Source: Oedothorax gibbosus (taxonomy: Eukaryota). Taken from it: a stretch of DNA of 64,000 bases. This document shows positions 1 to 63,251 of this stretch, piece after piece. Each line of letters opens with the position of its first letter. The first letter of the stretch is position 1. The position numbers were made by a program, and so were the translations under genes. The notes under the pieces are model-generated. The model saw nothing but the letters and a program-made list of their open reading frames with translations. It searched no databases and was not told the origin of the DNA. The stretch is from contig CM033278.1 of assembly GCA_019343175.1 (NCBI GenBank), positions 14,865,400 to 14,929,399 on the forward strand, given 5' to 3'.

Positions 1-1151
1 TTTGATGGGGTTATCAGAACTTTGTTTTTCAAGCTTTATTTATAAAGTCAATCGTCAATAAAATTGAATTCGATAACAACAGTAAAAAAAATCAGCGACG
101 AACTTTTTCTTGAAAATTAAAATGTAAAAAACACATCAACAGTGTAAATGTGCAATTAAGTTTAAATATTATTAGCTTACAAATGACGAAGCCTCTTATC
201 TTCCTTAATACCTTCTAACCCATAAAACGCTATAAATTATCTTATTGTTAAATAAGATATTTAAAACTTATCCAAACGAAATACTATAACAATAACATTT
301 TTATATGTTTCTCTAAGTATTAAAAACATAACTGTTAGTTACTTCTATTTGTTTGCGCTTTAAATGTAAACAAATACTTCGTAATACTTATAGAAACTAT
401 ACATCAATGTGTCTCAAACATTTTGCAACCCACCAAAATCATGATTTAGATTGAATGGTTGATTGAAATAGTCTGCAAAGATTTGAAACATATTAAATTT
501 AAGTTAAATGAGTGTCTATTAATTATCCATTGCTCTCCAATAATTAAACCGCTAATATGATTAACAATGAGACACTTTTTTTGAAATTATATGGATGTAT
601 GATTAACTAAGTAGAACGTATTAACTATTTCTACGCAATTCTAACAACAACGAGGTTTCCTGGAAAAATATTTTCATCAATTCCAATCATTAATTGGTTA
701 GATATGTGGAGGAAGTTTCTATTTTGTCTACAGATTACACAAAGCTACTTTATGAATTCTTTTAAAATAAAAATCGGTCGAATTTGTAAATAAAAATGAT
801 GTGAGCAATTAGTTTAATTAGATTATTTTTAAAAATTTGCAAAGTTATTTGTTAATAGTTAAACTATCAAATAGGAGTTATCATTTTTGTTAATTTTATG
901 TTAATACTAATTAAAAATCATGCAAATGTTAGCTCATTATCACTAATTCTAAATTAAATATAAGTATTTTTAGTGGTATGTACTACATCTTTATTTGTTA
1001 ACTAAATTGCGTGTAAGTATGACATTACTAATTATCAATAATATATTTGTATTGTAAATGTTAATTAAATTTTTATTATTAAAACTATTATTTATTGTTA
1101 GGAAAATGTGTTGATTTACAATAAAATATTGTTAGTCCAATGAATAAAGGA

Positions 1152-1990
1152 GTTTTACCATACAAAAGGTCCGGTATCGCTGATTTTTTTATATGTTGTG
1201 TGTGACCCCTAGGAAGTAATAAATGTGAGTTTTCGTCATCCTCGTTCTATTGCTTTTTCCGCCATCTTGAAAAAACGTTCGAAATGTCGCCCATTTTCCA
1301 GTTTTTGGCCTATAACTTTTCTCCTAAGCATTTTTAAATAGAACTTTTCGACACAAAGTTGTAGAAAACAAAATTTTCTTCAAAATCGGTATCAAAAGTG
1401 TTTTTCTACGACAAACAGTTAAAGAGCTAAGAAGCAGCAAAAAGGTGTTTCGAAATTTTTTTTACTTTTCCACGACTTTCTATTACCATAACTCACATAA
1501 GACTTCATTTTATCCATAAAATATGATTTTACAAATTGCAGGAAATTCAACTTTCTATATAATACACGTATCAAAAAAGTTACTGATAGATTCCATTAAG
1601 AAAAGTTAAATTTACAGAAACACAAAAAAGGGCTACTTTCACCCGACGATACAATGTTTTATTATTTAACCTATAGCTCTTTCCTAGTGTATTTTTTAGT
1701 GTTTTTGTGAATGCAAAACTTGTTCAAAATAATTTTTCCTATAAAAAGGTTCTTTTGTGTTTCATACGAGGAAATGTAACAGAGCTACGTAGTACGAAAA
1801 GTGGCGTAAACTCTTGAATTCCGCCAAAAGAGTTTTTTACCACTTAAAATCCCAATAATTAAAAAAAATCATTGTTTTAGCGGATCATAATTATTATGAA
1901 ACTTGTAGATATCATCATTTCTTATATTAGTAAGGTCTTAAAAGTAGTTTTAGATTCAATACCAAAGAATTTAGATACATTAAAAAAAAG
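1152..1990. repeat. left long terminal inverted repeat of element 1152-4793
   Basis: 1150-1510 and 1750-1985 reverse-complement-match 4420-4793 and 4200-4400; the left arm has ~250 bp extra (1510-1770). Confidence 0.6.
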
Positions 1991-2412
1991 ATTTGTATTT
2001 TTCATTTGAATAAATGGGCATGATTTGGTAAAAGATTTCAATTTACATGAGTCTGAAGTAAAATTTTCCTTTCAACGGAGAATTTAAATAAAAAATATAA
2101 ACTATTTTATATCCTTTTCGTTTAAGGTATCGTTTAAGTTTTTCGTTAAGGTTTCGTTTAACATCGTACCAATAGAACAATGGAAAAAATATGGGAAAAT
2201 GTGTAATAGAAAATTATCAAATTTACAATGAGTTATTTTAATGAAAAAATTTATGCTTAAAGTAATACACATATAAAAAAACGAAACAATATTCCACGTG
2301 GCATTTATCATGCCTAACAAGTTATATCAGAACTAGCTATATAGAGAATTGAAATGGTACAAATGAAACCGTACACGTATATATCTGTCAAGTGAATCAA
2401 TTACGTTATCAA

Positions 2413-3733
2413 TCAGACTCGTTTGGGTGGTATATAAAGAACTTCAACTGATTCATCTTCATAGTTTGAAATTGTGTCTAGATCAATATCATCTTCGTCG
2501 ACGATGAGTGCCCTATTGTTGCAGGACAGTCCACAGCAGTGCTTACGGAGGTAAGAGCAATACAAGCCAGATTTTCTGCAACTGCATGCATCCAAACAAC
2601 TCTTGATGCATTTACATTTAATCGTTTTCAATAAATCTTTTCGTAGGCGCAGCGTCCTTTTTTGTCATAATAGGCAACAAACCTCTGCTCCCTGTCATCC
2701 ATCCGTAATCGAACTAATTTTTTTGAATTCCTCTCCAGGCCATGACTTGATGGTAAGTCCTCAGTGAATGGAATTGTGATGCGTCGGAGGTTGGTGGCAG
2801 CGTAGCTAAATTGAGCTTTGTGGTGCTGGAAAGAAATTTTGAAAAGCGAAGAATTGTGAGAGACTGATCTTTGTCTCCACCATATAAGGAAACTAAAATT
2901 TCTTCTCCGGCCTTTGAAATTTCTGCCGCAATAGCATCAGGGTTATTGAAAACATCTGCCACATCTAACAAATATGGATTCCTTTGGAAAAGATTGTAGA
3001 ATTTGCCTTTCCCATATCCAATAACGTTGGAAGTAGTGTCACATCCGCTAATGGCATGAAGGAGTAGTAGATATTTAGTCGAACCATTCAGAAATGACGA
3101 AGAAGAGTAGACAATGTCAGGTGAATTGCTTTTCCCTGGTTTTTAAAGGTAGACATTTTTGACAACAGGAGGATCACCAGTTACTACCACCAGTAGGTCA
3201 ATATCTTCACCCACAATCAAAAAAGCTTCATATTGTGAAGCTATTGATTTGGTAGAGTTGACGATTAGAACGTCAGCATCTTAGTCTGCTTGTTTGGTAA
3301 TTATGCCTGAAGTCTCAAGTTCGTTTCTAAGTATAGTTACGAACCGTCTTTTGTTTTGTTCATTGGATAAAAATTTCTCCTGTGGGGTTGTATTTACAGT
3401 TGTTCGGTCAAATATCACATCAGCTGAGATATTCATCTTGCGCCTCCTTAATCGTTCAGCGCTCTTAGTACTCAACTGAATATCATCGGAGTAGCCATCA
3501 AATACAACTATTACCGTAGAGCCATAATGCTTGAGAATGTACTTCCGATAATCAGTGTAGATTTCAGAAAACGTCGCGTTTTGACTCCACACCACTTTGT
3601 AGAGTAGATGTACACCATCAATAACAACCATGCTTTTTGAAGGGAGTTTAAAACTATCTGTAACTGGTGTGAACGCGGAGTACATAGCAGACTTTGTTCC
3701 CTTCCGCATTCCATCTTCATTGAACAGGGACAT
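2413..3733 (-). pseudogene. frameshifted ORF: XPG/FEN1-like N domain (3733-3284), I-domain/H3TH region (~3280-2975, shifted frame), LPPT..HSLRTYHQV region (2971-2714), CXC Cys-rich domain (2631-2413)
   Basis: MVVIDGVHLLY...VIVVFDGYSDDIQLSTKSAERLRRRK matches the FEN1 pattern vAIDaS...VYVFDGKPPqLKsgElaKRseRR; downstream in another frame GEDIDLLVVVTG (EDMDcL-like) and ISGCDTTSNVIGYGKGKFYNLF (H3TH GSDY..GIG-like); the C-terminus is CKCIKSCLDACSCRKSGLYCSYLRKHCCGLSC; interrupted by stops and frameshifts. Confidence 0.55.
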
Positions 3734-4199
3734 AGAAAATGGTGCAAGTTCATATTCCAGATACTCTTTTCTCTCTCTCTGTGTAAGATATTTTACTCGC
3801 TTGAAAAAGTCTACTCTGTAAAGTTTGGAATGTAACTAGAAATATTTAATGACAATAGATGACAACGATTTCCATCATTCCACTTAAGACAAAAAAAAGG
3901 ATCTTACCTTTTCATGAACTCGATATTAGTAGTTAAAAAAAACTTGGATGGAGAGTTATATATTTCTGACGAACCATATACAAAACTCAACATATTTGAG
4001 TTCAGTTGTCTGTAGGCTATCAAATTTACTTTATCTTTCCATGGAAATCTTGATAAAAATTCCATTCCTGACCACTATTTTCTCGAAAAAAGATTTTAGT
4101 TACCATAGTTATTGTTATGGTTGCTATGGTAAATCTAACTGAAAGTATACAGATATCCATTGTGTCCTTAGCAAAACATGTAGCGGCTTCTGCTTATGT

Positions 4200-4793
4200 T
4201 TTTCAAAAAATATACCTAAATTCTTTGGTATTGAACCTAAAACTACTTTTAAGACCTTACTAATATAAGAAATGATGATATCTACAAGTTTCATAATAAT
4301 TATGATCCGCTAAAACAATGATTTTGTTTTAATTATTGGGATTTTAAGTGGTAAAAAACTCTTTTGGCGGAATTCAAAATGTTACGCCACTTTTCGTACT
4401 TATAATCATATTTTATTGCTAAAAGGAAGTCTTATGTGAGTTACGGTGATAGAAAGTCGTGGAAAAATAAAAAAAAATTCGAAACACTCGATTTTACACC
4501 CTTTATGCTGCTTCTTAGCTCTTTAACTATTTGTCGTAGAAAAACACTTTTGATACCGATTTTGAAGAAAATTTTGTTTTCTACAACTTTGTGTGGAAAA
4601 GTTTGATATAAAAATGCTTAGAAGAAAAGTTATAGGCCAAAACCTGGAAAATGGGTGAAATTTCGAACGTTTTTTCAAGATGGCGGAAAAAGCAATAGAA
4701 CGAGGATGACGAAAACTCACATTTATTACTACCTAGGGGTCACACACAACATATAAAAAAATCAGCGATACCGGACCTTTTGTATGGTAAACC
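4200..4793. repeat. right long terminal inverted repeat of element 1152-4793
   Basis: Reverse complement of the left arm; terminal tggtaaacc mirrors ggagttttacca. Confidence 0.6.
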
Positions 4794-4840
4794 CCCTTTT
4801 TGAGTCTCTATTCACTGGACTATGTTCATTTATAAAATAA

Positions 4841-6483
4841 CTAGCTGTTATACCCGACGTTGCACGGGTAGAGGTGGAAAAATAATTTAACAGTCAATTT
4901 AACTATTTTTTTTTTTCTTTCATTTTAGTTACGTAAGATATGAGGATTACCCAGTAATTTCCCATTTAATTACCCAACTTGGATATAGTAATAAATAATA
5001 TTAATTTCAAAAATACCTTTGATAAGAAGCTCAAATTAAAAAGAATACATATTTAAGTAAAAAATAATCAGTAAGAATTAAAAATGGAAAAACAGCTAAA
5101 TCTTAAAAGGGTCTCAGACATTTATTTTAACGCAATTCAAGGAAGTTCTATTATAAATTAAGTAACTTTTTTTTTGGACACTTTGTAGATATAAATACAA
5201 TATAAGCAGTACAAATTTCTACCATAATTCAATACAAATGCTGAAAAATTAAGAATTCAATGCAAATGTATACAGTATTAAATCAATGCAGATATGTACA
5301 CTAATTGAATGAAAATAAATACAATAATAATTCAAAGAAAATGAATACAATAATAATGCAATGCATATATGTACAATTTATGTATTTCTAATTTTTTAGC
5401 TGTAATTAAACTAAATATACTTAAAAATCGTTTTAAAAGAAAGGGGAAAATAAAACTAAATAAACATTTCGTGAAAACGTGCTGTTGAAGGAGCAATAAA
5501 CCTCCAAGGTCTTCAATGCATTGAATGGGAAACATAAAAACGTTCGAAAACGATAGAAGGAATGGTCTGATTCGAAAAATTCTTAGCCTATGTTTGTTCC
5601 GGACATGAGATGAATTTTTGTGCCAAATTTCGTGACGATCTGTTGCGTGGTTCTTTAGATCTCGTGTCTTAAACAAACAAACAAACGTTGCCTTTTATGT
5701 ATATAGATAAAACCTTTTAGCTCATTTGGCACGTTTTGGGAAAAAAATTGGCGAGAAAATAGATATAGCTACAAACACACCCACTATACAGCTCTAACAC
5801 AATGGCCTTCGAACAACCAACCAGCTTATAAATTATTTATAAAAAAAAATGACCATTCGGCGAGTTTTAGTTAATAATTTGGCGAGTTTGGCAACGTATT
5901 TGGCGAAAAAATAAAGACATAAAACCCTAATATGCAGCTCTAGTGCGACGGCCTTTATTAACCATCATAGTTCAGTAATAGCTTAACGATAAATTTATTG
6001 CTTAAATATGCATACATGCAGTCAACAGAAAAATCAATGAAAAAATCCTCAAATAAACCCACAATAAAATCCGGGAATGGAGACTGCCGGAATTACGTCA
6101 CTTGAAACATGTCAATTATTTTTCAAATAATGAATTTAGTTTCTGAAGTTAATGGCAACAGAATAAAATAAATATTTTCAATTTTAATTACTTTTGTTAA
6201 AAGTTTTATTTAATTTTTTCAGCCGATGGCATCAGGAAAGTAAAAAAATGATCGGATTTGAGCCAAAGTGGTGTAGTTTTTTCAGAAAAACGTTCGAAAC
6301 GATAGAAGGAATGGTCTGATTCGAAAAATTCTTAGCCTATATTTGTTCCGGAGATGAGATGAATTTTTGTGCCAAATTTCGTGACAATCTGTTGCGTGGT
6401 TCTTTAGATCTCGTGTCTTATACAAACAAACAAACAATCAAACAAGCAAACAAACAAACGGAAGTTGCCTTTTATGTATATAG
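4841..6483 (-). mobile_element. Helitron-like non-autonomous element, copy 1 (contains a second internal 5' terminus at 5706)
   Basis: The 5' end TCTATATACATAAAAGGCAAC..(TTTG)n is preceded by A and the 3' end ..CGTCGGGTATAACAGCTAG is followed by T in all three copies; a short GC palindrome ACCCG..CGGGT lies 11 nt upstream of CTAG; no TSD. Confidence 0.5.
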
Positions 6484-7371
6484 ATTGTGTTAATTTTTTT
6501 TTAAAAAAATTGCTAATTATTGATAAAACATCGCTTGTTAATTAATTGGTTTTAATTGAATGTAATAATCATTGTTTGTTAATTATGCATTCAAAATTTA
6601 AACTGCTATTCCGCGACTAGTTACTTATTGATACCTTGCTGCCTCTTTCAATCAACTGCTATATTTAAATAATAATTCTTAGTTACCCCTCCTAGCAACG
6701 ATTTGAATCAAAGCTTGGTAAAACCCCAACAAAAACCAGAGACCATATTACTTATCAGTGTTTCCCATATTTTTAAACATTCATCTCTCTCTCTTTACAC
6801 AGTAAAATAACCTTTATTAAAAATGCCTCCGGCGGTGTTCCTTTGAAGTTTCCAACGTCCACTTCCTAAACCCTTAAACGCCCTTTTCAAATAAACTTCA
6901 GACGATCGTCAAGCATGACCGCCAACTTGAGACAATGCCCTCGAAAGACACAAAAGAATTTCTCTGCTGACCAGAGGTCACTTTTCTTTGACGGATGAAG
7001 AAACTTAATCCGTCTCAATTTAAGCCAAGAAGATACAATGTTTCATCTGCCAGGAAACTCACTGATATCCCTGAGTATATTTAAAATATATTTGGCACGA
7101 ATGACGCTCAGTCGGTATTGTGGTTTCTTGCCTTCCAGGGTATGGCTTGAAAGCACACGACGACAACAACATTTGGCACAAATGATATTTTCGAGGGTAA
7201 ATGCAGGAAAATTTGCTAATTAGAAAAAAAAACTTTATTTTTATGAATTATATAATTAAAAGTCAAGCAACAGTTAGACACATAATCGTTCAAAAAACAT
7301 AAATTGTTTACAAACATTTATTCATCAGAAATTTTATAATGAAATTCATGATCAAAGTTAAAATTTATATA

Positions 7372-7647
7372 CACTGTAACACCGTGCTGCATTAAGTTTA
7401 CTCCGTAAAATCGGTGAAAGCCTAACTCCCTCCTATTTCACAGGGTAACACTGTAACATTACACCTATTTTGCGGCGTAACTTTACTCTATAAAATTAGT
7501 GTAAAGTTACCCCATGAAACTGGAGGCAGTGCTGACACCGGTTTTACGATTTTACGATGTAAACTTATTTGTGTAATATTACTCTATAAATTCGATGTAA
7601 CGTTACTCCATGATACTGGAGTAACGTTACACCAAAGTTTTACAGTG
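7372..7647. mobile_element. Tc1/mariner-type MITE (~276 bp), TA target-site duplication
   Basis: TA|CACTGTAACACC...GTTTTACAGTG|TA; inverted termini CACTGTAA; the interior is rich in short internal inverted repeats. Confidence 0.45.
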
Positions 7648-8832
7648 TAAAGTTAAAAGCACTTAACTAGATAAAAATTCCTAGTAAAATCTTTAGATTT
7701 ATGGAATATTATGTCAAAGTCATTAAGGGCACAAAACATTTTATAAATATCAAGCAAATATCGTAATAATTATTCAAATAGATATAAAAGTAACTTGCAT
7801 ATACTAATTGTAGGTTTAGCAAATAATGAAACCTTTTGCATTGACAACAAGCTATTAATATGCATAATGCCTCAGCAAACAAAAAAATATAGCCAATCGT
7901 CTTATGTACTTTTTTTTAATTTTGAAATAATAATTATATTTATGATAATGAGATAGTCTAAAAAGATGTAATAAATAGAAACGATATCAAAATTATCAGA
8001 CATACATACAATTAAACAATCCTCCATCGGCAATCGGCATCCATTTAGCAAGGCCCTGGATCTTATCAAAAGGTCACTTTCTTATCCACGGAATTTTACA
8101 TACTACATTCCTTCACATTTTTCATTTGAAACAGATCATTTGGCTTTATTTTTATATATTATAAGTGAAAAATCTGAATAAATGTTGAAACACTCATACG
8201 TTTTTCTTTAAAACTCTGAGTCATTCTTCAGCAACCATCATAAATGTAATAACAACGTTTTACCTAAAAAGAGGGTTATACAGTTCGTTTCTAGAAACGT
8301 ACACATTAAAATGGGTATGATTAAACTGGGTATAATTTTGTATAACTAGATATAATGGGTAAAATTTAAAAATCTTGAAATTTCAAAATTAATAACATTA
8401 AAATGTAAAAACACTTTCTATACTCATTAGCACATGAAACTCAGAAGCACATGAAATTAGTAAATTTATTGCAAGAAATTGTCAAACAAGTTTTCTGAAA
8501 TATTCGTGACAACTAAAAATATAAAATTGATAATCCAAAAAAAAAGAAAATAGATAAATAAATGCATGGAAAATCTGTGAAAATTGGCCATTCTTAAAAT
8601 TACGGTATTAATATAAGTCAAATTTAATATCGGTAACACTTATTTCAAATTTTATTCTACTATTTTATTCTAACTTAGTGAGGTCTTTTGTTGAATCAAA
8701 TATTTTATTAAATAAATTATACTATTTTATTCGGTATAAATACAAAAAATGCCATTTGTGTATTGAAAATACTTATAGTAAACTATTACACATACATATG
8801 GAAATTTTAAAAGATCTTATACTTCATTTTAG

Positions 8833-8876
8833 CGCAAAACTATGATCTTAACAAATGCAAGTCAATACTTCAAGAG
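8833..8876 (+). CDS. SEC14-like (CRAL-TRIO+GOLD) gene, exon a (5'-most exon found; upstream exons not located)
   Basis: Acceptor cattttag; encodes (A)QNYDLNKCKSILQE, matching the CRAL-TRIO-N motif RArsFDLqKSEAMLRK; donor GTGAGA. Confidence 0.5.
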
Positions 8877-9289
8877 GTGAGAATCCCTTTTTTAAATATT
8901 TTTAAATCGGCACCGTTTCTACACTGTCATTATTAAATTTTTGTTTTCAAATTAATGATTTTTAAAGTTAATTTGAAAAATTAAGCTATCAAAATGTATG
9001 AATAATTAGCTATAATTTAACTACAAATCTTTTATTCTTGTTCTATACCATAATAATTGTTTTTCAATGTGCAATTAATAAATAAAAAATATTTAAATAA
9101 AAATAAAGATAAAATAAAATATATATAAAATAAAAAGTTTTATGCTTCTAAATACTTATAATAAAATTAGTCTTAACAAAACTAAAAGTTCCATTATAAA
9201 TCTTTTTTTTTTGTGTTAAGCAAACTTTGATCAAACTTAAAGAATTTTTAAATGTGTTGTTTTCAATTTTTTTTATTTTTTATTTTCAG

Positions 9290-9352
9290 ACAATTTCCCT
9301 TAGAGCTGTACATGACATTGATAAGTTGGTAGAATTTTATAAAAAGCCTGAA
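9290..9352 (+). CDS. SEC14-like gene, exon b
   Basis: Acceptor tattttcag; TISLRAVHDIDKLVEFYKKPE (matches DIDNIISWQPPE); donor GTAAGA; phase 0. Confidence 0.55.
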
Positions 9353-9937
9353 GTAAGAGTTATTCTTTTTACTTAGTTATTTTAATATGTCGGAAGTAGA
9401 TTCTCTTTTGTTTCATAGTATACAATTATAACCTGTTGTAAAAATTAGATGAAAAAATTTAAGAGCAATTTGTGCTACTAACGTAAAAACTAGGAGCAAA
9501 TGTACATTATCTAGGAGCATTTTGCTAAAAATATTTACGGGGGAAAATGCCAATTTTATATAATTTATCCACAAACACTTAAGATTGCCGTTGTTGCGCA
9601 TGTATAGAATCATCAGAACTTCGGAGTTTCAAAAGAACTGGTGAAAATTTTAGAATAACAATTAGCGATCGTCGGAGTATCGCATTTTATGTATCGCCGG
9701 ATTTTTGTTATTTAAGGATCATAATAACTCATAAAGGAACTTTTGACAAATTTAAGATCGTTAAAGATTTGGAGATTTTAGGATTATTATTTTTTCGCAA
9801 GATCTTTGGAAACCACCTTAAAAAGTTGATAATGACATTAAAAAAAACTAACGCTAAAGATTGTTGTTGTTGCGCATGTATAGAATCATCGGAATTTCGA
9901 AGTTTACATAATATTTATTGTTTATTTTTCCACACAG

Positions 9938-32267: not shown

Positions 32268-33445
32268 ATCGATCTAGTCCAGGCAACGAAGAGTTATGGA
32301 GGGAAAGTTTTGGAACACAATTTTTGACTTTGTAACTTTGTTTGGACTAGTTAGGAGATGAACATATCAAAAATCCCCGCCCCTAGCCCCTGAGCCGAAG
32401 GGAGGAGAGGGGGTTAAATGTCCCATTTTTCGATTTTTTGCTTATATCTCGAAAACTATGCGTCCTACCGATTTAATTGTAATACACAAAATGAAAGCTG
32501 ATTAAATTTGCTACAAGTTTCACCCCTCAAGTGTTATAATATCTTGTATAGTTTTCGAGATATCCGCTCTTGAAAGTCTGTAATTTTGGAGAAAACATTT
32601 TTTCCCCCACATTTTTCCTCTTTTTTGACCAAATAACTCTTCAATAATGCACCGAAACACTAAATATTGACCCTAGAGTGGTAGAGAATTTAATTCTTTT
32701 CAATAATATATTTTACTTTACTATTTTATCTATTTTAATTCAAATTTTAAAGCAGTTTCAGTATTGAGCGAAGAGGGATTGTCAGTCCCATAGAGCTAAT
32801 ACATTAGTTTTGAAATCACAACTTTTGCAAAAAAATTACTTTGTCATGTTATCAAATTTTTACCAGGTATGGGAATCATCATAATATCAATTTAAAACAA
32901 AATTGCAAAGAAAATAACATCCGGTTATTTAATTATTAATTGTTAAAGTTTTAAAAATAGTGTCGCCATCTGCTGTATATTTTTGGAATTATAAAATTTC
33001 AAAAATATATAATTAAATAACTAGATAACATTTTCGTTTCAAATTTGTTTCATTTCGATGTTATGTTGTTTCCCGTACCTGGGGAAAAAGGGCTGTCATG
33101 GCAAAGCAATACATCTGCGGAAGTTGTGATTCCAAAACTAATGCAATAGCTCTATGGAACTGACAATCCCTCTTATGTACACTTATTCTATACTGAATGT
33201 TTAAACAAAATCCAGATACTCATTTTGTAGGCACGCTGTTACTTTAATATTTTATCTATTTTTATATTCTATTGTTATCTATTTCATTTCATTCGTCGGA
33301 CCCCAGTAAGAAAACAGTCAGATGATCATCCTGTTCTTCTTTATCTTCCTAGTCAACTTGAGAGACCCCATTGAGGCAAGTCCCCTGGCAATTTTGGAAT
33401 GCTGAGGAACATTTGAGACTTACTTTTTTACAGCTACACTTTGAG
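32268..33445. repeat. left arm of the large palindrome (inverted duplication)
   Basis: Reverse complement matches 34178-36207 except for an 812-bp insertion and a homopolymer expansion in the right arm. Confidence 0.7.
32772..33174. mobile_element. foldback-type element (palindromic MITE), copy a
   Basis: AAGAGGGATTGTCAGTCCCATAGAGC...GCTCTATGGAACTGACAATCCCTCTT; its internal halves are mutually inverted. Confidence 0.5.
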
Positions 33446-34020
33446 CTGGAACAGTGTTTCATGCATCTGCAGAAAATTATTTTCAAAATATCGTCATGCG
33501 TTGCTGCTAACTCACTGTGCACTGGGACCAGGCAGTTGTTCTCAATCTTCCACTCATACATCTCAGGAGGCAGGTCATTTTCCAGCCACAGCTGAACTTG
33601 GTGGAATGTTCGGAGGGAATGCTGTTTTACTGTTCCCTCGGTGGGAGGTAAACAAGAGATATCAGTCTTGATGGTGGCCACTGATCTTAAGAATCACTTA
33701 TATCTGTAGGCATTGAGGGAGGCCTCTTTCGTTAGAGCCCCATACCACCTCAAAGCGCAGGTTTCGTCTGCCTTTTGAACCTGATCAGTGGTTGAGGAAA
33801 GGTCCGAAAAGCTGCTGCTTTCTGGACCTATGGCGACTTCAGATAAAGCTTCGCAAATGCGACCTTGCTTTTTCGAAATGCGGAAGATGTAGTGTCGCAT
33901 CCAGTAAATGCGTGCAAAAATAGCACGTCCTTTAAACCCAGTTGCTGAAGCTCTTAGGACGAGAAGAAAGAATCCTGTGTCTTCCCACGTGCAGGCTTTA
34001 AGTAATGCCCTTACGCGCAT
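33349..34020 (-). pseudogene. C-terminal fragment of the same FEN1/XPG-CXC ORF family as 2413-3733, at the palindrome centre
   Basis: ..FSDLSSTTDQVQKAD.. / LPPTEGTVKQHSLRTFHQVQLW...CRCMKHCSSSKCSCKKVSLKCSSAFQNCQGTCLNG parallels FSKFLSSTTKLN / LPPTSDASQFHSLRTYHQVMAW + CKCIKSCLDACSCRK.. of the first copy. Confidence 0.5.
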
Positions 34021-34466
34021 CAGCTTTAGCCATCAAGATTCAAGAGGACTATAAGGTCGACATCTTCATTCTTCACCTACAATGCCGACAGCTTGTGTTT
34101 TCGACATTTCCACAGCTGTATCCAAGTTGATCCAATTGTTCTCAAGCTTCACCTTAAGTATGTTGATGATGATGTATGTTGATGAGACTGTGCCAGCTTA
34201 AAGTGTAGCTGCAAAAAAGCAAGTCTCAAATGTTCTTCAGCATGCCGAAATTGCCAGGGGACTTGCCTCAATGGGGTCTCTCAAGTTGACTTCGAAGATA
34301 AAGAAGAACAGGAGGATCATCTGACAGTTTTCCTACTGGGGTCCAAAGAATGAAATGAAATAGATAACATAGAATATGAAAATAGATAAAATATTAAAGT
34401 AACAGCGTGCCTACAAAATGAGTATCTGGGTTTTATTTAGACATTCAGTATAGAATAAGTGTACAT

Positions 34467-35698
34467 AAGAGGGATTGTCAGTTCTATAGAGCTAATGCAT
34501 TAGTTTTGGAATCATAACTTCCACAGATGCATTGCTTTGCCATGTTAGCCCTTTTCCCCCAGGTACGGGAATCAACATAACATCGAAACAGTAGCGCCGG
34601 AACTTATTATTTAGAGGTATGGCAAGAAATTCCTCAATCTACCCCCTCCTCCCACTCTAGATGTTTTAAATATATAGTATTATATTATTTAACAAATAAG
34701 TATTTTTCAATAAAATTAAAAAATTCCTAATAGAATACGCACAGTGATTTTTCAAAGCCAGAATACAGACGTGACTTTTGGGACACCCTGTACTATATTA
34801 TAAAAAACATTTCAATGTTACCGACTAGAAAAAGATGTGATTTAAATAAATTAGTTGGTTGGTTGGTTGGTAGACATATATATTCAGGTTTGTGTGCTTG
34901 GTCAGCGACCCGCTTATAAACCTTATAAATTAATTTATTTCTCAATGTCTGAAATTAAACAGCTATTTGGAAATATAAAATGCAGAAAGCAAACAAACTC
35001 TTTTATCTATATAGAAAATGTTAGTTAACATAAAAAGTTAATATTTAAAACAAAAAAATATGTATATATAATGATACATCATTAATTATGCCTAAAGGTT
35101 GATTTCTTTTATTTGTTTTAGAAACAAACGCTTCAATTATATTCTCAATGTTTATATTTGACAAAAGCCCATTACTACAGATCCCCAGTAGGGGAATGTG
35201 TATACGTGTTATCTTTCTCGGTGTGGTGTGGTTGTGAGGTAGGATATGTGACAAAAATATTTGCAAGTTTAATTGGTTTTGTTGGATTTTTTTCACATGG
35301 TCACTTTTGGGTTTGATTTTGTAAAATGGAAAAAAACGCATAACATATAATCTGTGCAAAAGCTAGTAAGGCAACTGCCATACCGGTTCCGGCGCCACTG
35401 CATCGAAATGAAACAAATTTGAAACGAAAATGTGATCTAGTTATTTAATTATATATTTTTGAAATTTTATAATTCCAAAAATATACAGCAGATGGCGACA
35501 CTATTTTTAAAACTTTAACAATTTATAATTAAATAACCGGATGTTATTTTTGTTTCAATTTAGTTTTAAATTGATATTATGATGATTCCCATACCTGGTA
35601 AAAATTTGATAACATGACAAAGTAATTTTTTTGCAAAAGTTGTGATTTCAAAACTAATGTATTAGCTCTATGGGACTGACAATCCCTATTCGCTCAAT
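34467..35698. mobile_element. foldback-type element, copy b (in the right palindrome arm, interrupted by the hAT-like MITE)
   Basis: Same termini as copy a, reverse orientation. Confidence 0.5.
34589..35400. mobile_element. hAT-like MITE (812 bp) with 8-bp target-site duplication CATCGAAA
   Basis: CATCGAAA|CAGTAGCGCCGGAAC...GTTCCGGCGCCACTG|CATCGAAA; the uninterrupted left arm (33050-33060) shows a single copy of the target. Confidence 0.7.
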
Positions 35699-36716
35699 AC
35701 TGAAACAGTTTTAAAATTTGAAGGAAAATAGATAAAATAGTAAAGTAAAATATATTATTGAAAAGAATTAAATTCTCTACCACTCTTGGGTCAATATTGA
35801 GTGTTTCGGTGCATTATTGAAGAGTTATCCGGTCAAAAAAGAGAGAAAATGTGGGGGGGAAATGTTTTCTCCAAAATTACAGACTTTTAAGAGCGGATAT
35901 CTCGAAAACTATACAAGATATTAAAACACATGAGGTGTGAAACTTGTAGAAAATTTAATCAGCTTTCATTTTGTGTATTACAATTATATAGGTAGGATGC
36001 ATAGTTTTCGAGATATAAGCAAAAAACCGAAAAATGGGACATTCAACCCCCCCCCCCTCCCCCCTTCGGCTCAGGGGCTAGGGACGGGGACTTTTGATAT
36101 GTTCACCTCCTAACTAGTCCAAACAAAGTTACAAAGTCAAAAATTGTGTTCCAAAACTTTCCCTCTATACCCTTTTTTCAGCCTTCGTTGCCTGGACTAA
36201 TCGTAGCCTACAAGCGGCAAATCTTTAAATCCGGCCCTGCCCGGACCCGAACCTGGGACCTTCCTCGTGCAAGGCGAACGCCTTGTTATTATGCTGGCAT
36301 TATGAAAAGAACCCCAGTTTTTTTTTTTTTTAAATAAATTCTAAATATTTAAAAATATAGGATAAAAGTTGATTTTTTATCAGTTTTTCCAAATTTATAT
36401 CATAATTAATCAATTTTAAATATTTTTTATATTTTGTTCATTGAATATATATAGAGTGGTGATGAAGTAACTTAACATAAAGAACAAAACCTTCAGCATG
36501 GTTATTAAAAAAATTGCATTGATGAGGATTCGTTGATAAGCACTTGAGAATGACGTACAGAAATTTGAAAGTTAAAAATAGTTGTTTTAAAAATTGCTAA
36601 AATATGCCTGAGATTGATTATCAAAATTCTAAACGCATTAGAAGTTTTGAAATAACGGGATAGTTTCTATATCTGCTAAAAGAAAAAAAATACCTTGATT
36701 AGACTAATATTGTTTA

Positions 36717-38803: not shown

Positions 38804-40578
38804 TAGAACACCATACAAAATTTCGGAAAACTTATTAAAGGGATAGAAGGAAATCATATTGATATTAATTTGCATCTCTAACAATTTAAAATTGTTTCAA
38901 GAAAAATGAAATCTTTACATTTATAAGCATATCTTTAATAAGCAACCAACACTTGTTGTCTGTCGATTGAGAGTTTTAATGGTTGGATTATCTAAAAGCT
39001 TGATCAGATAACTGTTGATATGGCAAAACAAGTTATTATAAATTAATAGATTCTTTGTGTCAAAACTAGTAGGTGACATTAGCTAGTTTTAAATAAGTAA
39101 ATATGTTTTGGCTAGTGTATATTTATTATAAAATATCATTTTATTTTATACCCTTTTAATAGTTTGTTAGATAAAAAAAAGTTTGTTTAAAATATACTAG
39201 TCACAATAATCCTAGAATTACCTACCTCAACTGACCTTACTTCAATAGTAATTCATTTGTGTGTTTTTTATCCAGCAAAGTCCAAACGAAAAAATTATAT
39301 TTTCGTATTTGGCGAATATAATTAACCTTGAACTGGATGTACTTTTCTTTAAAAAAAATCACACACAAAATTGCGTTTTGGGTAATTTCTTTTAAGCAGA
39401 CACCACTGACTTAAAAATCGCCAAATAAGTGATATAAGGTCCCACTTATTTCAACTTGGTCATTTAAAAGAGCAAAGTATTAATAAATCATCTTATATAC
39501 TCCTGAGATCTAACATCCAATTTAAAGACATGTTTTGATTTACTTCCCTTCAACTACACAATTTATTTTTACTTTATGCACTGAAATGGTTTGATGGGAG
39601 AAGATCTAAAAATCCCTTTCAGGCTTTGATCAGTGGTATCGGTTTCAGTAGTTTATGTCTATGAAAAAAAATGAAGTTGTACAATGGTCCACACAATTTC
39701 AAAGTTCTTGCGGTTTTTTCAACAGCTACTTTCAAAGGTATTTTTCATTAAAAGCAGTGTTGTTAATTACAAACTGAATATTCTACTTGAACTTTTGACT
39801 ATTAATTACGAAAACACTGGTTTTAGCATTCATAGCACACATAAAAGTGTATTTTTAAGATTTCAAATGAAATTGATGTGCCCCTCAGTACGTATTACAC
39901 ATTAGTTTTTTCAAAAAAATTTGTTAACCTGCTTTTTAATCATTATATTTGTTTGAAAAATGTCTTTATGATGTTATATGTGTAGGATTTTACTGGGGTC
40001 TCAAGGAGTATATTATTGCAACCCTGATACTACATGATTTCCCACTTTGACTTTATTCATGGATTACAAAATCTGCAAAAAACATTTTCATTTTTGTTTA
40101 TTATTTACCTTTTTTTATAATATTTTATAAGGGGAGGAGTCAGGGATGTTTTTAAAAGTAAACAAAACATTGAATTTTTCTAATTCAAAATGCCTTAAAA
40201 CTGTATTTTGTGGCTTCGGATTTTTTTTAAGGTAAATAAAGTTTTGAGTTACCCTATTTCTAAAAATTATGCCTAAAACTTGATTATGGGGTCATGAAAA
40301 TGATTAGGTAAAAAGTTCTTTTTCTAACTCTAGCTTCAATTTTGGCTACAGTGGTTGGAGACTTTTATGGATTGGGGTTTAACGGAAAAATATCAAATTT
40401 TGTTTACATCTTCTTTCTTTTTTAACAATGAATATCATTTACTTTTCTATTTGAAATTATTAAATGTTTCATTTGGTTTCAGAAAGTCCAGATTTTCGAA
40501 TACATGTCCAAATCAAAGGCTTGCTGGTGATTGAGATTTTATTTAAAAAAAATCTTTCAAAATAACTTAGTTTTAAGC

Positions 40579-41757
40579 ATGAATGACGACACAAGGAAGC
40601 CTAGTGTGGATGCTCCGGTTGAACTTGAAAGTCAGTTTATTCTACGCTTACCTTCCACACCTGCTGCTTCTTTAAGAGCAGCAGTGAAGTCTGGTGTGGC
40701 CAACTTGGAAGACAGGCTTGCTATTCAGTTAGAGGCAGATATGAGGCATGCCACGGTTCAGTTTGATAAATGGACATTACCAGCAAAACTTTATGACCTT
40801 CCCACCATAATTGAGTCCTGCAAGACATTAGACAAGAAGATTTTCTACAAGACGGCCGACCTATGCCAAATAATGATAGCTCACGAGGGTGATGCTGCCA
40901 AAAGTGATGAAGAAGTTTCTCCCAAGAAAAAAGACAAAGATGCCAAGGACAAGCGATACATGCTTCCACATGGGATAACAGCACCTTTGAAAAATGTGAG
41001 GAAAAGACGGTTCCGTAAGACCCTAAAGAAGAAATATGTTGATTTACCTGACGTAGAGAAAGAGGTCAAGCGCTTACTCCGAACTGACACAGAAGCTATC
41101 AGTGTTCGATATGAAGTAGTAAACGCTGAAGACGAAAAAGCTGATGGGAAGAACAACGAAAGAGAATTTGGTGCAGATGGCTTGGAAGAAAGAGAACTGA
41201 GCAACTCCCAAGCAGCAGATGTTGCAGAATACGACCTCTTTGGTGAAGTCCTCAGCAGCTCGGAAGAAAGTGGAGACGAGGAAGATGTAAATGTGGTTGA
41301 TTTGGGACAAGCTGCCCGCAAGTTGGAAAGCATCATTGAAGAACAGGACAAGGCAGATGAAGGTTCCTCCAAGGTCACCAAGGACACGGATGACCTGGCC
41401 AAGAGCATGCAGATGAGCCCGGATCCGTCAGACCAATTCCAAGACTATGGCAACGAGAACGACAGCATGGCGGTCTCTCAACTGGAATCGGCGACGGCTG
41501 GAGAAAACCTTGGACAGCTGCTCAAAGAACAGAAGACGGAAGAAGAAAGGATGGCTTTGATGGAAAAAATGGTCGAGTTGGAGCATGCAATATCAAACTT
41601 GCAGGCTTCAAGAAGGGCTCAGGAGGCTAAGGTTATTAACATTGAAAATGTTGCCCTCAGGCAACGATTCCAAACCACCATTGAGCAACTCAAGCAAGAG
41701 GAGTATGAGAAACAGATGGAGTATAATGAAATTGTGAGTATACTTCAAGAGGGCTAA
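40579..41757 (+). CDS. TAF7: TAF7 (TFIID subunit 7), intronless, 392 aa
   Basis: MNDDTRKPSVDAPVELESQFILRLP...WTLPAKLYDLPTIIESCKTLDKKIFYKTADLCQIM...YMLPHGITAPLKNVRKRRFRKTLKKKYVDLPDVEKEVKRLLRTD...acidic region...C-terminal coiled coil; matches the human TAF7 motifs ESQFILRLP and HGITLPLKNVRKRRFRKT. Confidence 0.85.
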   Translation: MNDDTRKPSVDAPVELESQFILRLPSTPAASLRAAVKSGVANLEDRLAIQLEADMRHATVQFDKWTLPAKLYDLPTIIESCKTLDKKIFYKTADLCQIMIAHEGDAAKSDEEVSPKKKDKDAKDKRYMLPHGITAPLKNVRKRRFRKTLKKKYVDLPDVEKEVKRLLRTDTEAISVRYEVVNAEDEKADGKNNEREFGADGLEERELSNSQAADVAEYDLFGEVLSSSEESGDEEDVNVVDLGQAARKLESIIEEQDKADEGSSKVTKDTDDLAKSMQMSPDPSDQFQDYGNENDSMAVSQLESATAGENLGQLLKEQKTEEERMALMEKMVELEHAISNLQASRRAQEAKVINIENVALRQRFQTTIEQLKQEEYEKQMEYNEIVSILQEG

Positions 41758-56829: not shown

Positions 56830-57373
56830 CTGAAAAAAACCATTGATATAAATATGAGTTTAACATTTGAATACTTACGCAGCACAGCACTCCATGGCTT
56901 AATTTCTGCAATACAATGAAATATAGCCGTACGAAAAACCTATAAATACTATAGACTTTTTTAAAACTCTCTCTCTCTCTCTATAAGCGGTTTATCACAA
57001 TCCACCTAATTTCATTTTCATTTAATTCCTCTTTTATATTTAGTTATTAGTTTAAAGAAACTAAAATAACTTAGTTACCAAGGAGGGGAAATCTAAAATT
57101 GATACAGATCTCCTAAACGGTAAATCATTATAAATGTGAACCTTAGTGTAAAATTAGTTTTAAAAATAATAGATAACGGTAATTGCAAATTAATAATTTA
57201 AATTATTTCTGACTACAGACCATTTAATGAAACTAATAGTTTTAGAGACACTTTAAGTCAAGTTAGGTTTTACCTTCAAATAGTCATCTAAATTTCAAAA
57301 CATGCTCGTGTATTTTGAAATACATAGTTAATTATGAAAACAACAAAAGAGTTAAGAGCTTGCTTTTACTTAC

Positions 57374-58029
57374 CTAGATATTACTGAATCATATTTATCG
57401 AGATATTTCACGTCTACCCAAGATACATGATACCAATCTTTGTATCCTTCCACTCCGCAACAGCTGTAATTAATCTGCAATAGATCTATCTTCTCCTTCA
57501 CGTTTTTATCCCTACTGTACCTTTCCATGCTGTCTTTCAGACCTTTGCCAAGAGCGCCCCTTAATACACGGATATCCCCAAAAAGGGTGAAAGTCGCCAC
57601 AGCAACAAGCAATACAACTGCTCCAGACGCCACGAGGTATATGAAAAGGTAAAAGGCTGCCGATTTTGCTTCATCGAGATCTTCGATTCGGCGACTGCCA
57701 ACTGCAGCTTTCACACCAAGAAGACTCGCCAAGACTATGGCAATACCTGACACGAGAAGTATGGCGGGAACAGATTGCAGCTGGTAGTAGTCTTGAAGAA
57801 AAGTTATCTGTTTTGTTTGGGAATTTCGGACATACCAGCTCAATATAATGAAAATAACACCACAGTTTATAGATATGAAATTTGCGACTATTAGAAAGAG
57901 GCTGATTATCTGCCTTAAGTTTTCCGATACATGGCATGAAAATATGTAGTTGCGGTTACTATTAAAATCGGTAGGCAGAAGATCGGTTGAAGATTCTTCA
58001 GAAAAGTCTTTATCTTCGTCTGAACTCAT
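57374..58029 (-). CDS. tetraspanin exon 1 (ATG at 58027-58029): N-terminus, TM1-TM3, start of the large extracellular loop with the CCG motif
   Basis: ...IISLFLIVANFISINCGVIFIILSWYV...AILLVSGIAIVLASLLGV...AFYLFIYLVASGAVVLLVAVATFTLF...INYSCCGVEGYKDWY...; donor GTAAGT after ATATCTAG. Confidence 0.7.
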
Positions 58030-61136: not shown

Positions 61137-62267
61137 CTAAAATAGAATTTAAAAACAGATGTTAAAGGGATTCTACAGTCTTGGAAACACAAATTTTGCT
61201 CATACAGGAAGATCTAATAAATAATTTCATTTAAAAACTTATATAAAGTGATGTACTGTTAGAGGTGTTTTTTTGTAGGAAAATAGCTTTATATGTAAAC
61301 ACAAAGTACATACAAAATAATTATTTTAAAAAGTATTTTATCATTAAATAATTTCTAAGTTAAAGAAACTCTTATTCAACTGCTAGCAAATAAATACCCG
61401 TTCTTCGCACGGACTAAAAGAATATCAAATAGATCCAAGTATATGTGTCATTTAATTTTCTATAGGATAATAAGCTTTGCCTTTGTTCCTGTTCATTATA
61501 AAGAATAAAATCCCGTTACTTATATTGCTTTAAAATTCCAAAATAAAAATACATCACTATAAAATGCACATCCTCATATCACAAAAATCTTCCTCAATAT
61601 GAACTTACCGTCATCGCAATTTTCCTGGTAAATTCAAAATAAACCATAATTGTATAACAATGTTATTTCATGTCAAAACCTCCATTCTGGGTTTAAAAAA
61701 AAAACATTTAACTCATTAGCACGTTCAATTATTTTTCAAATCATTAATTTAGTTTCTGAAGGTAATGGCAAGAAAATAAAAGCAATTTCAATTTAAATTA
61801 AATTTTGTGTTCATTTTAATTTCTCCTGTCGAATGGCAACACGAAAGGGAAAAAATGATCGGATTTGAGCGAAAGTGGTGTATTTTTTTCAGAAAATAAG
61901 AATTTTCTCTTAAAATGGAACAAAAATGAAAAAACTAAGCCTCAGGCGCACACGTTGGTATTAAAGAGAATCTATCTTAAAAATTTCGAATTTCTGAGGG
62001 CAGTATAAGTAGGTCTTTTATGATCCAAAGACATACAGACACACAGACAGGCTCTTTCTTTCATTATTATACATTCATTGAGTCTACCTTGATAGAAAAA
62101 AAGGTTCTAGCACTAATTGTCGCAGGTACAACACATTAGACCAACAACTTGTCTTTTTTAATAATAATTTATTAAATGCAGAAATTTTTTTAAACAGAAA
62201 CTATTTTCCAACTTAACTAATCTTTAAATTAACCATCTAGTATCAGATAAAGTGTTAGTTTACTTAC

Positions 62268-63251
62268 TTCCAATTCTCTGTTTGCATCAAATGAAGTTCT
62301 ATTTGGATTCCCACCAGATGGTAGGCATACTTGGGTTTCATCCTCATTAACTATAACACTTGAATTTTGAGTAACCATGTCTGTAATGGGCAAACAACTG
62401 GCTTGGTTAGTTAAAATGTCAGCTGGAGAGGCATTTTGTCCATTAATTATCAAATCTCCATTATGAATACTATGGGTATTACTTATAGGTGATACATTTA
62501 CTAGTGTTTGTAGGAGAGATGAATTACTGCATAAATTCATAGTTTGGGGAATATCTTGACAAGAGTTTAAAATGCCCATATCGTGTCCAAGATTCAACGA
62601 TTCATAGCTCTTTTGGTTTACAATTGCACTATTCCCATCAATTCGTTCCTGATTGCCAGCTAATTCCTTGCTGATGGCAAGTTCACTTAAAGCAAAATCC
62701 GAATACTGGTTCGAATCTATGTTCCTCAACTGTTGCTGTTGAGTCGAGTCCGAATCAAGTAATTGCACTTTTCTGACTTGTATGTTCTGCAACAAATGAG
62801 CCCTGTCGGTTGAAAAAAACATGCTAGGTTTCGAAGTATCCACAGCACTCAGGCATCCAGAAGAGAGCGAAGAAGGTGTGACAGTGGTTGCATTTCTCAA
62901 ACCAAATAGAGATCCCCTGGAGACATCATTGTGATTTTCCACATTGGTCAGTGTAGCTATTAAAGGATCTTGCTGGTGAAATTCAGAGTTAACGGTGGAA
63001 AATGCCTCTTCATGTGCATCACTCAAAATCTGTTCCGGCAACCTTGTGCTTATGTCCTCGACGTTCATTGTTGAGATCTTTTGATGGTCTATTCGCTTGC
63101 GTTTGATGTGGGGATGCACGAGGTCAGCATTTGATGGTGATCTGTAGGGGTTTGAGGGAGGTGCTGCAGTGGGAAAAATATTTGATGCATCTTTAACAAA
63201 ATAAGCTCCTGTTTGTAGTGATAGTGCATCAGCGATTTGTGTGCTAGAAAT
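62268..63251 (-). CDS. unidentified nuclear-protein gene, large exon (328 codons; KRKR basic cluster; Ser/Asn/Gln-rich)
   Basis: Acceptor tatttttag; ISSTQIADALSLQTGAYFVKDASNIFPTAAPPSNPYRSPSNADLVHPHIKRKRIDHQK...FDANRELE; donor GTAAGT; phase 0 at both ends. Confidence 0.5.

Follow-up and report, generated by a model that had tools for sequence, protein, structure and literature searches.

Background

[quoted passage not shown] The full-length AcademX protein measures ~1,450-1,500 aa and comprises an N-terminal region, the DDE domain (residues ~430-850), the FEN/XPG nuclease and a C-terminal CXC-like cluster of cysteines (Cys8-9).

We analysed 64,000 nt of the dwarf spider Oedothorax gibbosus (GCA_019343175.1, CM033278.1:14,865,400-14,929,399, forward strand), hereafter the window, which holds two elements with terminal inverted repeats (TIRs). 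A tRNA scan of the window returned no match. The first, element 1 (1133-4822), is in our assessment an AcademX DNA transposon copy that is non-autonomous, has suffered an internal deletion and is now dead through mutation, a reading to which we assign a probability of roughly 95 %. Both the Academ superfamily and the nuclease-fused architecture are already known, and element 1 is an ordinary representative rather than a new kind of mobile element.

Termini and target site duplications

The boundaries of element 1 and its repeats are as follows.

1133..4822, minus strand (ORF orientation): element 1, a decayed AcademX derivative of 3,690 bp, delimited by its termini and by ORF collinearity
1130..1132, no strand: left copy of the TSD, TGT, flanking element 1
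4823..4825, no strand: right copy of the TSD, TGT, flanking element 1
1133..1981, plus strand: left TIR arm, the 3' end in ORF orientation, from inverted-repeat comparison
4209..4822, minus strand: right TIR arm, the 5' end in ORF orientation, from inverted-repeat comparison

An earlier note, made from the sequence alone, had described a long-TIR element at 1152-4793. The element is real and its long TIRs were borne out, but its outer ends lie slightly outside that interval, at 1133 and 4822 (TAGTCCAATGAATAAAG / TAGTCCAGTGAATAGAG). The TIRs are 600-850 bp long and pair as 1146-1531/4401-4799 (91-96 % identity) and 1791-1981/4209-4400 (96 % identity), a divergence of 4-9 %. The left arm is longer by a 259-bp segment (1532-1790) absent from the right arm, either through insertion on the left or through loss on the right; the segment occurs nowhere else in the window and shows no clear TSD. 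Both ends of the element read TAGTCCA(A/G)TGAATA(A/G)AG (TAGTCCAGT..., TAGTCCAGTGAATAG), and the TSD, which the note had left to be defined, is TGT on both sides.

These features were shared well beyond the spider. A 3-bp TSD was perfect in 7/7 elements examined, reading TGT/TGT in element 1, ATC/ATC in element 2 and TTA, TTA, CTT, CTA and ATT in relatives. Written as TSD followed by terminus, element 1 gives TGT-TAGTCCA(A/G)TGAATA, the Mytilus element TTA-TAGTCCAGTCATTCTA and the Araneus element TTA-TAGTCCAGTCATTAGG; the published Academ-6_ADi, TTA-TAGTCCAGTCATTT (TTA-TAGTCCAGTCATTTTATGG, TAGTCCAGTCATTTT), resembles the terminus of element 1. Element 2 gives ATC-TAGTCCAGGCAACG, and its terminus matches that of the published Academ-7_ADi, AAA-TAGTCCAGGCAATTT, over 12 nt without a mismatch. 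The termini and 3-bp TSDs of the window elements match those of characterised AcademX families, and the terminal motif is kept across phyla. Only one copy of the exact element 1 was present within the 64-kb window, as might be expected if a decayed host gene had simply been flanked by a one-off inverted duplication, with no transposon involved. Such an origin is refuted by the TSD and terminus evidence, namely the cross-phylum motif and the seven perfect duplications, and is further opposed by the size of the encoded protein family, for which a profile search of the nuclease-CXC protein yielded 36,274 cluster representatives; we regard it as almost certainly wrong.

Coding content of element 1

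Three coding features were delimited between the TIRs.

2413..3808, minus strand: pseudogenised C-terminal third of the Academ polyprotein, from alignments and 355 homologs
2950..3650, minus strand: FEN/XPG-superfamily 5' nuclease domain, bounds approximate, from profile, model and conserved residues
2515..2616, minus strand: CXC-like cluster, the AcademX 'Cys8 zinc finger', CxCx3Cx3CxCx6Cx3Cx2Cx4CxN, from invariant Cys columns

The earlier note had proposed a single broken minus-strand ORF encoding a FEN/XPG-type nuclease with a CXC-like cysteine cluster at its C-terminus, and each of these proposals was supported, the nuclease at superfamily level. The ORF runs from 3808 to 2413 and is continuous apart from three in-frame stops (3281-3283, 3143-3145 and 2714-2716) and a single frameshift between 2621 and 2655. 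All the nuclease and CXC motif blocks that the note had quoted are present in it (VVFDG, STKSAERLRRRK, EDIDLL, ISGCD, LPPT..HSLRTYHQV..W and CxCxxxC...).

Single-sequence Pfam and PDB matches of the conceptual protein (CAT, E=6.6e-4; XPG_N, E=0.035; a designed repeat protein) were at noise level, and profile and structure methods were therefore required. A 49-homolog profile searched against PDB sequences gave human EXO1 as its sole match (E=7.5e-4), extending across the VFDG, (E/D)AD, EDxDLL and SGCD blocks. The closest homolog, P0001, shares 58 % identity with the window ORF. Its AlphaFold model had a pLDDT of 89.5 and a pTM of 0.86; in a Foldseek search of the PDB its best 50 matches were all T5 FEN, FEN1, EXO1, XPG/Rad2, Xrn1/2, T4 RNase H or ExoIX, with a probability of 1.0 and E=1.2e-6 for T5 FEN. 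The conceptual protein of element 1 also keeps D39, D79, D152, D154, D177, D179 and D232; across 49 sequences D152, D177, D179 and D232 were invariant, and D39, D79 and D154 were at least 90 % conserved. These acidic residues align with EXO1 D78, E150, D152, D171, D173 and D225, with the exception of D39, which the EXO1 alignment (residues 55-253) does not reach and which corresponds to EXO1 D30 by analogy only. The ORF is thus predicted to encode a FEN/XPG-superfamily nuclease with a PIN-like alpha/beta core and a helix-3-turn-helix, an assignment that holds at the superfamily level.

The Pfam comparison put forward in the earlier note did not yield significant matches. The window protein scored 15 bits against XPG_N (PF00752), where the cutoff is 22 (E=0.035), and among the 49 homologs XPG_N was matched by 1/49 at best (E=0.0045) and XPG_I (PF00867) by 0/49. 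Scattered NYN/XPG_N matches over the same homologs fit a PIN-like fold and are not diagnostic. Pfam CXC (PF03638 and related models) did not match the window or Araneus C-termini, and the C-terminus of the mussel homolog matched preSET_CXC (E=0.013) and TCR (E=0.82), both below the Pfam cutoffs. The names XPG and CXC are accordingly used here as superfamily-level labels. The CXC-like cluster itself has six invariant cysteines and three more that are at least 90 % conserved, with CXC-like spacing and a lower model confidence (pLDDT ~70-77); some homologs are named 'Tesmin/TSO1-like CXC domain-containing' by their source databases.

Full-length relatives and the missing transposase

Intact relatives from the spider Araneus and from mussel are ~6.3-kb TIR elements encoding a single protein of ~1,475 aa. 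In the Araneus copy (L002), ORFs 2992-5238 and 5239-7419 share a frame with one stop between them, giving 1,475 aa between 350-bp TIRs, and the mussel copy (L001) is divided into two parts in the same way. Pfam gave no match for the upstream or downstream Araneus ORF because the Academ transposase has no Pfam model. Academ membership was tested against published transposase-domain sequences (Kojima 2020, Data S3). The Academ-1_AP transposase domain aligned to Araneus residues 428-841 with 43.7 % identity over 426 aa (E=4e-109), and Academ-3_SP to the Mytilus protein with 52.8 % over 265 aa (E=7e-91) and 58.6 % over 145 aa (E=2e-52), the DDE domain of the full-length relatives being about 40-59 % identical to the published references overall. 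Moreover, a DDE domain lies directly upstream of the nuclease-CXC part in 41/41 family members of at least 1,270 aa.

The earlier note had rightly taken TIR transposases to be DDE enzymes, and that of Academ is one too. It had found the element impossible to place in a known superfamily and had considered a new nuclease-bearing element family; neither view stands, given the DDE domain in all 41 long members and an architecture, termini and TSDs that place the element in Academ, within the AcademX lineage.

The window ORF aligns solely to Araneus residues 997-1456 of 1,475 (E=3e-93), which indicates that the transposase part has been deleted. What remains of element 1 is the pair of TIRs, the 3-bp TSD and the final ~460 codons, which cover the nuclease and CXC; ~1,000 N-terminal codons, the DDE domain included, are gone. 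Queries with the reference Academ DDE domains and with residues 1-996 of the Araneus protein revealed no DDE similarity within the 64-kb window, and no N-terminal or DDE remnants were found in 3809-4208 or the rest of the window. An intact DDE transposase of its own, the mark of an autonomous AcademX element, is absent from element 1. With no DDE domain, three stops and a frameshift, element 1 is non-autonomous and dead. Its superfamily assignment is unaffected by the missing domain, since non-autonomous derivatives are placed by termini, TSD and residual homology.

The lack of a transposase domain in an ORF between long TIRs could also be taken to mean that an unrelated TIR element captured a host nuclease-CXC gene by transduplication, in the style of Pack-MULEs. 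However, the C-terminus of Academ polyproteins in spider, mussel and 41 other clusters is collinear with this intron-free ORF, whose nuclease shows only 12-16 % identity to cellular FEN1/EXO1/XPG; the element also has Academ-type ends and an Academ-type TSD. We rejected gene capture and host-gene origins on these grounds, and consider capture highly improbable. The view of the earlier note that this is a repetitive, mobile TIR element and not a host FEN1/EXO1 gene is supported.

Many database homologs are 420-550 aa long and, as in element 1, encode the nuclease and CXC parts only. A 3.4-kb aphid family carries just this ORF, intact at 530 aa, in copies that are 99.9 % identical at no fewer than three loci with 3-bp TSDs that differ by locus; such identity indicates recent movement, and nuclease-only Academ derivatives have thus been mobile in other hosts as well, in line with the AcademX reading of element 1. 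These short forms might suggest a new transposon family in which the FEN/XPG-like nuclease is itself the transposase and acts without a DDE enzyme. That reading is largely refuted by the Academ DDE domain fused upstream in 41/41 long homologs and by termini and TSDs of the published AcademX type. Intact partial ORFs are, moreover, expected in young non-autonomous copies without selection, and the window ORF is itself broken, so a nuclease acting as transposase appears very unlikely. It is also doubtful that the short nuclease-CXC-only Academ derivatives, exemplified by element 1, the aphid family and the many short database homologs, form a recurrent and possibly selected class rather than random deletion products. 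Were this the case, a retained nuclease-CXC protein might aid or interfere with full-length Academ transposition, in what would be a two-component or parasite-regulator system with a FEN-fold nuclease at its core.

Element 2 and the origin of the short form

The second element in the window was delimited as follows.

32275..36199, minus strand: element 2, a different non-autonomous AcademX derivative of 3,925 bp, with termini TAGTCCAGGCAACGAAG (TAGTCCAGGCAA, as in Academ-7_ADi)
32272-32274 and 36200-36202, no strand: TSD of element 2, ATC, on both flanks
33355..34067, minus strand: nuclease-CXC coding remnant of element 2, aligning to Araneus residues 1199-1405

The earlier note had reported a second fragment of the element 1 ORF; the fragment exists, at 33355-34067, but belongs to this different, complete TIR element. 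The remnant shows 33-41 % aa identity. In element 2 the TIR arms (32275-33455 and 34187-36199) take in the CXC-coding 3' end, a mirrored CXC piece of which lies at 34201-34299 on the plus strand, and ~810 bp (34589-35400) interrupts the right arm.

Element 2 clearly has a fold-back structure, and a fold-back origin could be proposed for element 1: an AcademX derivative in which a fold-back or template switch replaced the 5' half with the inverted 3' end, leaving the long TIRs secondary. In favour of this, no recognisable coding similarity exists in element 1 over the 400 bp (3809-4208) that separate its ORF remnant from its right arm. Related elements, full-length and short, nonetheless have long TIRs of their own (~350 bp in Araneus, ~430 bp in aphid), and the TIR of element 1 ends ~430 bp before the ORF stop codon, such that no coding sequence is mirrored. 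We consider a fold-back origin of element 1 unlikely, though it deserves some weight.

How the short form arose, whether by simple internal deletion or by 5'-end replacement, and its mobilisation in trans are points that we infer. Under the AcademX reading, element 1 would have arrived by cut-and-paste transposition, catalysed by the DDE enzyme with a staggered cut of 3 bp in the target. Once shortened, it would have been mobile only if a full-length Academ supplied transposase in trans, and that transposase would need to recognise the TAGTCCAG... termini of element 1. The three stops, the frameshift and the 4-9 % TIR divergence would have accumulated afterwards, and together they make element 1 a fossil today.

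The FEN-like domain is, in this architecture, an accessory C-terminal domain of the DDE transposase. We speculate that in intact elements the fused nuclease may process intermediates of transposition through a structure-specific 5' nuclease activity. Its substrates might be flaps or the non-transferred 5' strand, at gaps in the donor or the target, in loose analogy with TnsA, the partner of the DDE protein TnsB in Tn7. Across animal phyla the acidic metal-binding residues do not vary, an argument for catalytic activity of the nuclease in intact AcademX copies.

For annotation, the intervals 1133-4822 and 32275-36199 are best masked as repeats derived from AcademX; they should count neither as nuclease genes nor as a new element class. 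The number of cluster representatives and the DDE domain in all long family members further suggest that tens of thousands of animal 'Tesmin/TSO1-like CXC', 'Asteroid domain' and '5'-3' exonuclease' predictions are probably fragments of Academ transposases.

Comparison with known systems

The window elements have their termini, 3-bp TSD and nuclease with a Cys8-type finger in common with AcademX (Academ-1_AP, Academ-3_SP, Academ-6_ADi, Academ-7_ADi; Kojima 2020, Mob DNA 11:15). They differ in that the window copies are without the DDE part and pseudogenised, and in that their TIRs span 0.6-1.2 kb, whereas those of coral or mussel families are tens of bp. AcademH has a DDE transposase of the same superfamily, but with a separate RecQ-like helicase, two oppositely oriented genes and 9-10-bp TSDs, and neither an XPG nuclease nor a Cys8 finger; the 3-bp TSDs and the nuclease-CXC module therefore identify the window elements as AcademX and not AcademH.

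Cellular FEN1, EXO1, XPG (Rad2) and GEN1 and phage T5 FEN share with the Academ nuclease the fold and the VFDG, (E/D)AD, EDxDLL and SGCD motifs. The Academ nuclease differs from them in sequence, with only 12-16 % identity, and stays below the Pfam XPG_N/XPG_I thresholds; it is joined to a transposase and a CXC cluster, occurs in tens of thousands of copies and does not belong to a host repair gene. Tn7 TnsA/TnsB offers a possible functional analogy only, in that a DDE enzyme works with a second, unrelated nuclease, TnsA, which cuts the 5' strand; unlike the Academ nuclease, TnsA has a restriction-enzyme fold and is a separate polypeptide.

Structure of element 1

Repeat finding in the 3690 bp element (element 1) identified inverted-repeat arms at 1146–1445 and 4500–4799 that were 96 % complementary, with further collinear inverted blocks at 1445–1531/4401–4487 and 1791–1981/4209–4400. 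BLASTN joined these arms (91.5 % between 1146–1531 and 4401–4799; 96.4 % between 1791–1981 and 4209–4400), bearing out the long inverted repeats claimed in the earlier note. Reading the ends by eye extended the repeat outward across a small indel to the following termini, with TGT on either flank:

1133, + strand: left terminus, TAGTCCAATGAATAAAG
4822, opposite strand: right terminus, TAGTCCAGTGAATAGAG

A 259 bp segment (1532–1790) was present in the left terminal inverted repeat (TIR) arm only. It had no second copy within the window and no clear target-site duplication (TSD), and represents either an insertion in the left arm or a deletion in the right. The TIRs enclosed a single minus-strand frame running from approximately 3808 to 2413, in which every protein motif quoted in the earlier note was found. 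Signs of decay comprised three in-frame stops, one frameshift near 2621–2655, TIR divergence of 4–9 % and a G41 to V substitution at a nearly invariant site.

Relationship to AcademX transposons

Full-length relatives were examined for the origin of this frame. In Araneus ventricosus, two ORFs shared a frame with one stop between them, summing to a 1475 aa protein enclosed by 350 bp TIRs:

2992–5238: 748 aa ORF
5239–7419: 726 aa ORF

In Mytilus edulis, a 709 aa ORF lay directly upstream of a 754 aa nuclease-CXC ORF within a 6.25 kb TIR element. When compared with the Academ transposase-domain alignment (Data S3 of Kojima 2020, PMC7165386), residues 428–841 of the Araneus protein matched Academ-1_AP (426 aa, 43.7 % identity, E=4e-109), whilst the upstream and downstream Mytilus ORFs both matched Academ-3_SP (265 aa, 52.8 %, E=7e-91; and 145 aa, 58.6 %, E=2e-52). 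By this similarity, the upstream half of the Araneus and Mytilus proteins is the Academ transposase. At a cutoff of E<=1e-3 an exhaustive profile search returned 36 274 cluster representatives, of which 4205 passed E<=1e-30. The 150 best representatives included 41 proteins of at least 1270 aa, in which the nuclease-CXC part lay at approximately residues 830–1470; all 41 had the reference Academ DDE domain upstream (E<=1e-10), compared with 3 of the 61 proteins under 700 aa.

Perfect 3 bp TSDs were present in all seven elements examined, including three aphid copies.

TSDs and termini of window elements, relatives and published Academ families
Element; TSD; terminus
Window element 1; TGT; TAGTCCA(A/G)TGAATA
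Window element 2; ATC; TAGTCCAGGCAACG (motif also given as TAGTCCAGGCAACGAAG)
Mytilus element; TTA; TAGTCCAGTCATTCTA
Araneus element; TTA; TAGTCCAGTCATTAGG
Published Academ-6_ADi; TTA; TAGTCCAGTCATTTTATGG
Published Academ-7_ADi; AAA; TAGTCCAGGCAATTT
Three aphid copies; CTT, CTA, ATT

The earlier note was right that this is a mobile TIR element. Its placement outside known superfamilies was mistaken, as the Academ DDE match in relatives, together with the termini and TSDs, assigns it to AcademX. Because the window ORF matched only residues 997–1456 of the Araneus protein (E=3e-93), and searches of the 64 kb window with the reference DDE domains and with the Araneus N-terminal 996 residues gave no match, element 1 is a non-autonomous derivative shortened by internal deletion (3.69 kb versus approximately 6.3 kb full-length).

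Nuclease domain and cysteine cluster

A word-index search recovered 355 homologs of the window protein across animals, with hosts including ants, spiders, aphids, whitefly, mussels, mantis shrimp and hagfish. The domain did not reach the Pfam XPG_N or XPG_I thresholds, XPG_N scoring E=0.035 in a single-sequence scan of the window protein, under the gathering score. The sole PDB-sequence match of a 49-homolog profile was human EXO1 (E=7.5e-4), in an alignment spanning the metal-binding carboxylate motifs VFDG, (E/D)AD, EDxDLL and SGCD, whose Asp residues were invariant or nearly so across the family. For P0001, the homolog nearest to the window ORF (58 % identity), a confident AlphaFold model (pLDDT 89.5, pTM 0.86) drew all of its top 50 Foldseek PDB matches from the 5'-nuclease superfamily, namely T5 FEN, FEN1, EXO1, XPG/Rad2, Xrn1/2, T4 RNase H and ExoIX (E as low as 1.2e-6, identity 12–16 %). 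Given the EXO1 match, the near-invariant Asp residues and the modelled fold, the domain is a divergent FEN/XPG-superfamily nuclease, so that the FEN-like call in the earlier note holds at superfamily level. The invariant acidic residues argue that the nuclease is active in intact copies.

Nine Cys residues, six of them invariant and the other three nearly so, made up the C-terminal cluster, with the CXC-like spacing originally described. Pfam CXC models remained sub-threshold (for a mussel homolog, preSET_CXC at E=0.013 and TCR at E=0.82; no match in the window sequence).

In protein databases, fragments of the Academ polyprotein are widely named 'Tesmin/TSO1-like CXC domain-containing protein', 'Asteroid domain-containing protein' or '5'-3' exonuclease', and also 'Chromosome-associated kinesin KIF4' and 'Constitutive coactivator of PPAR-gamma-like'. 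Such names are likely misleading.

A second element and short derivatives in an aphid

The 'second fragment' of the earlier note exists, not as a stray piece but within a complete element, at whose ends (32275 and 36199) the terminal motif recurs, facing inward:

32275–36199: element 2, 3925 bp, approximately 1.2 kb TIRs taking in the CXC-coding 3' end (mirrored at 34201–34299)

Since its protein remnant shares only 33–41 % amino acid identity with element 1 and the Araneus protein (33–35 % with element 1), element 2 belongs to a different AcademX family. Its right TIR arm is broken by approximately 810 bp (34589–35400) that the left arm lacks, possibly through nested insertion or rearrangement.

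In Rhopalosiphum maidis, a 3.4 kb Academ derivative with 430 bp TIRs and terminus TAGCCCAGTCAAATTAG codes only for an intact 530 aa nuclease-CXC protein. Copies (6268–9664 of retrieved loci; chromosomes CM014281.1 and CM014282.1) were 99.9 % identical, and the 3 bp TSD differed at each of the three or more loci they occupied, so that they moved recently. Short nuclease-only derivatives are thus mobile outside Oedothorax gibbosus. These copies underlie an unlikely reading of short derivatives as a maintained class; the pattern is that expected of young non-autonomous copies, and by itself is no sign of selection.

Other features of the window

40531–41757, + strand: intronless TAF7 (TFIID subunit 7) ORF, TAFII55_N E=1.9e-52, 100 % identical to O. 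gibbosus protein JTE90_000122, which identifies the window as DNA of this dwarf spider
57370–58029, − strand: tetraspanin-domain ORF (PF00335, E=2.8e-18), likely one exon of a tetraspanin gene of the host
62229–63119, − strand: Ser/Asn/Gln-rich ORF, 296 aa, no Pfam match
5548–5708 and 6297–6485: direct repeats of approximately 140–190 bp, 92–97 % identical, spaced approximately 750–780 bp, with an (AAAC)n tract at the end; a short SINE-like or other small repeat is the probable source

Several spiders had two TAF7 paralogs among the matches listed.

Mechanism and comparison with described Academ elements

The TIRs, TSDs, Academ-polyprotein homology and missing DDE part of element 1 are direct observations. 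From established transposon biology, insertion would have proceeded by DDE cut-and-paste with a staggered 3 bp target cut, and mobility after the deletion would have depended on transposase supplied in trans. More speculatively, the fused FEN-fold nuclease may act on transposition intermediates, processing their 5' strands or flaps. Coupling of the Academ nuclease to DNA repair has been raised as speculation only, and the XPG nuclease is mutually exclusive with the AcademH helicase (Kojima 2020, PMC7165386). Element 1 is a fossil non-autonomous AcademX transposon, of a kind already described.
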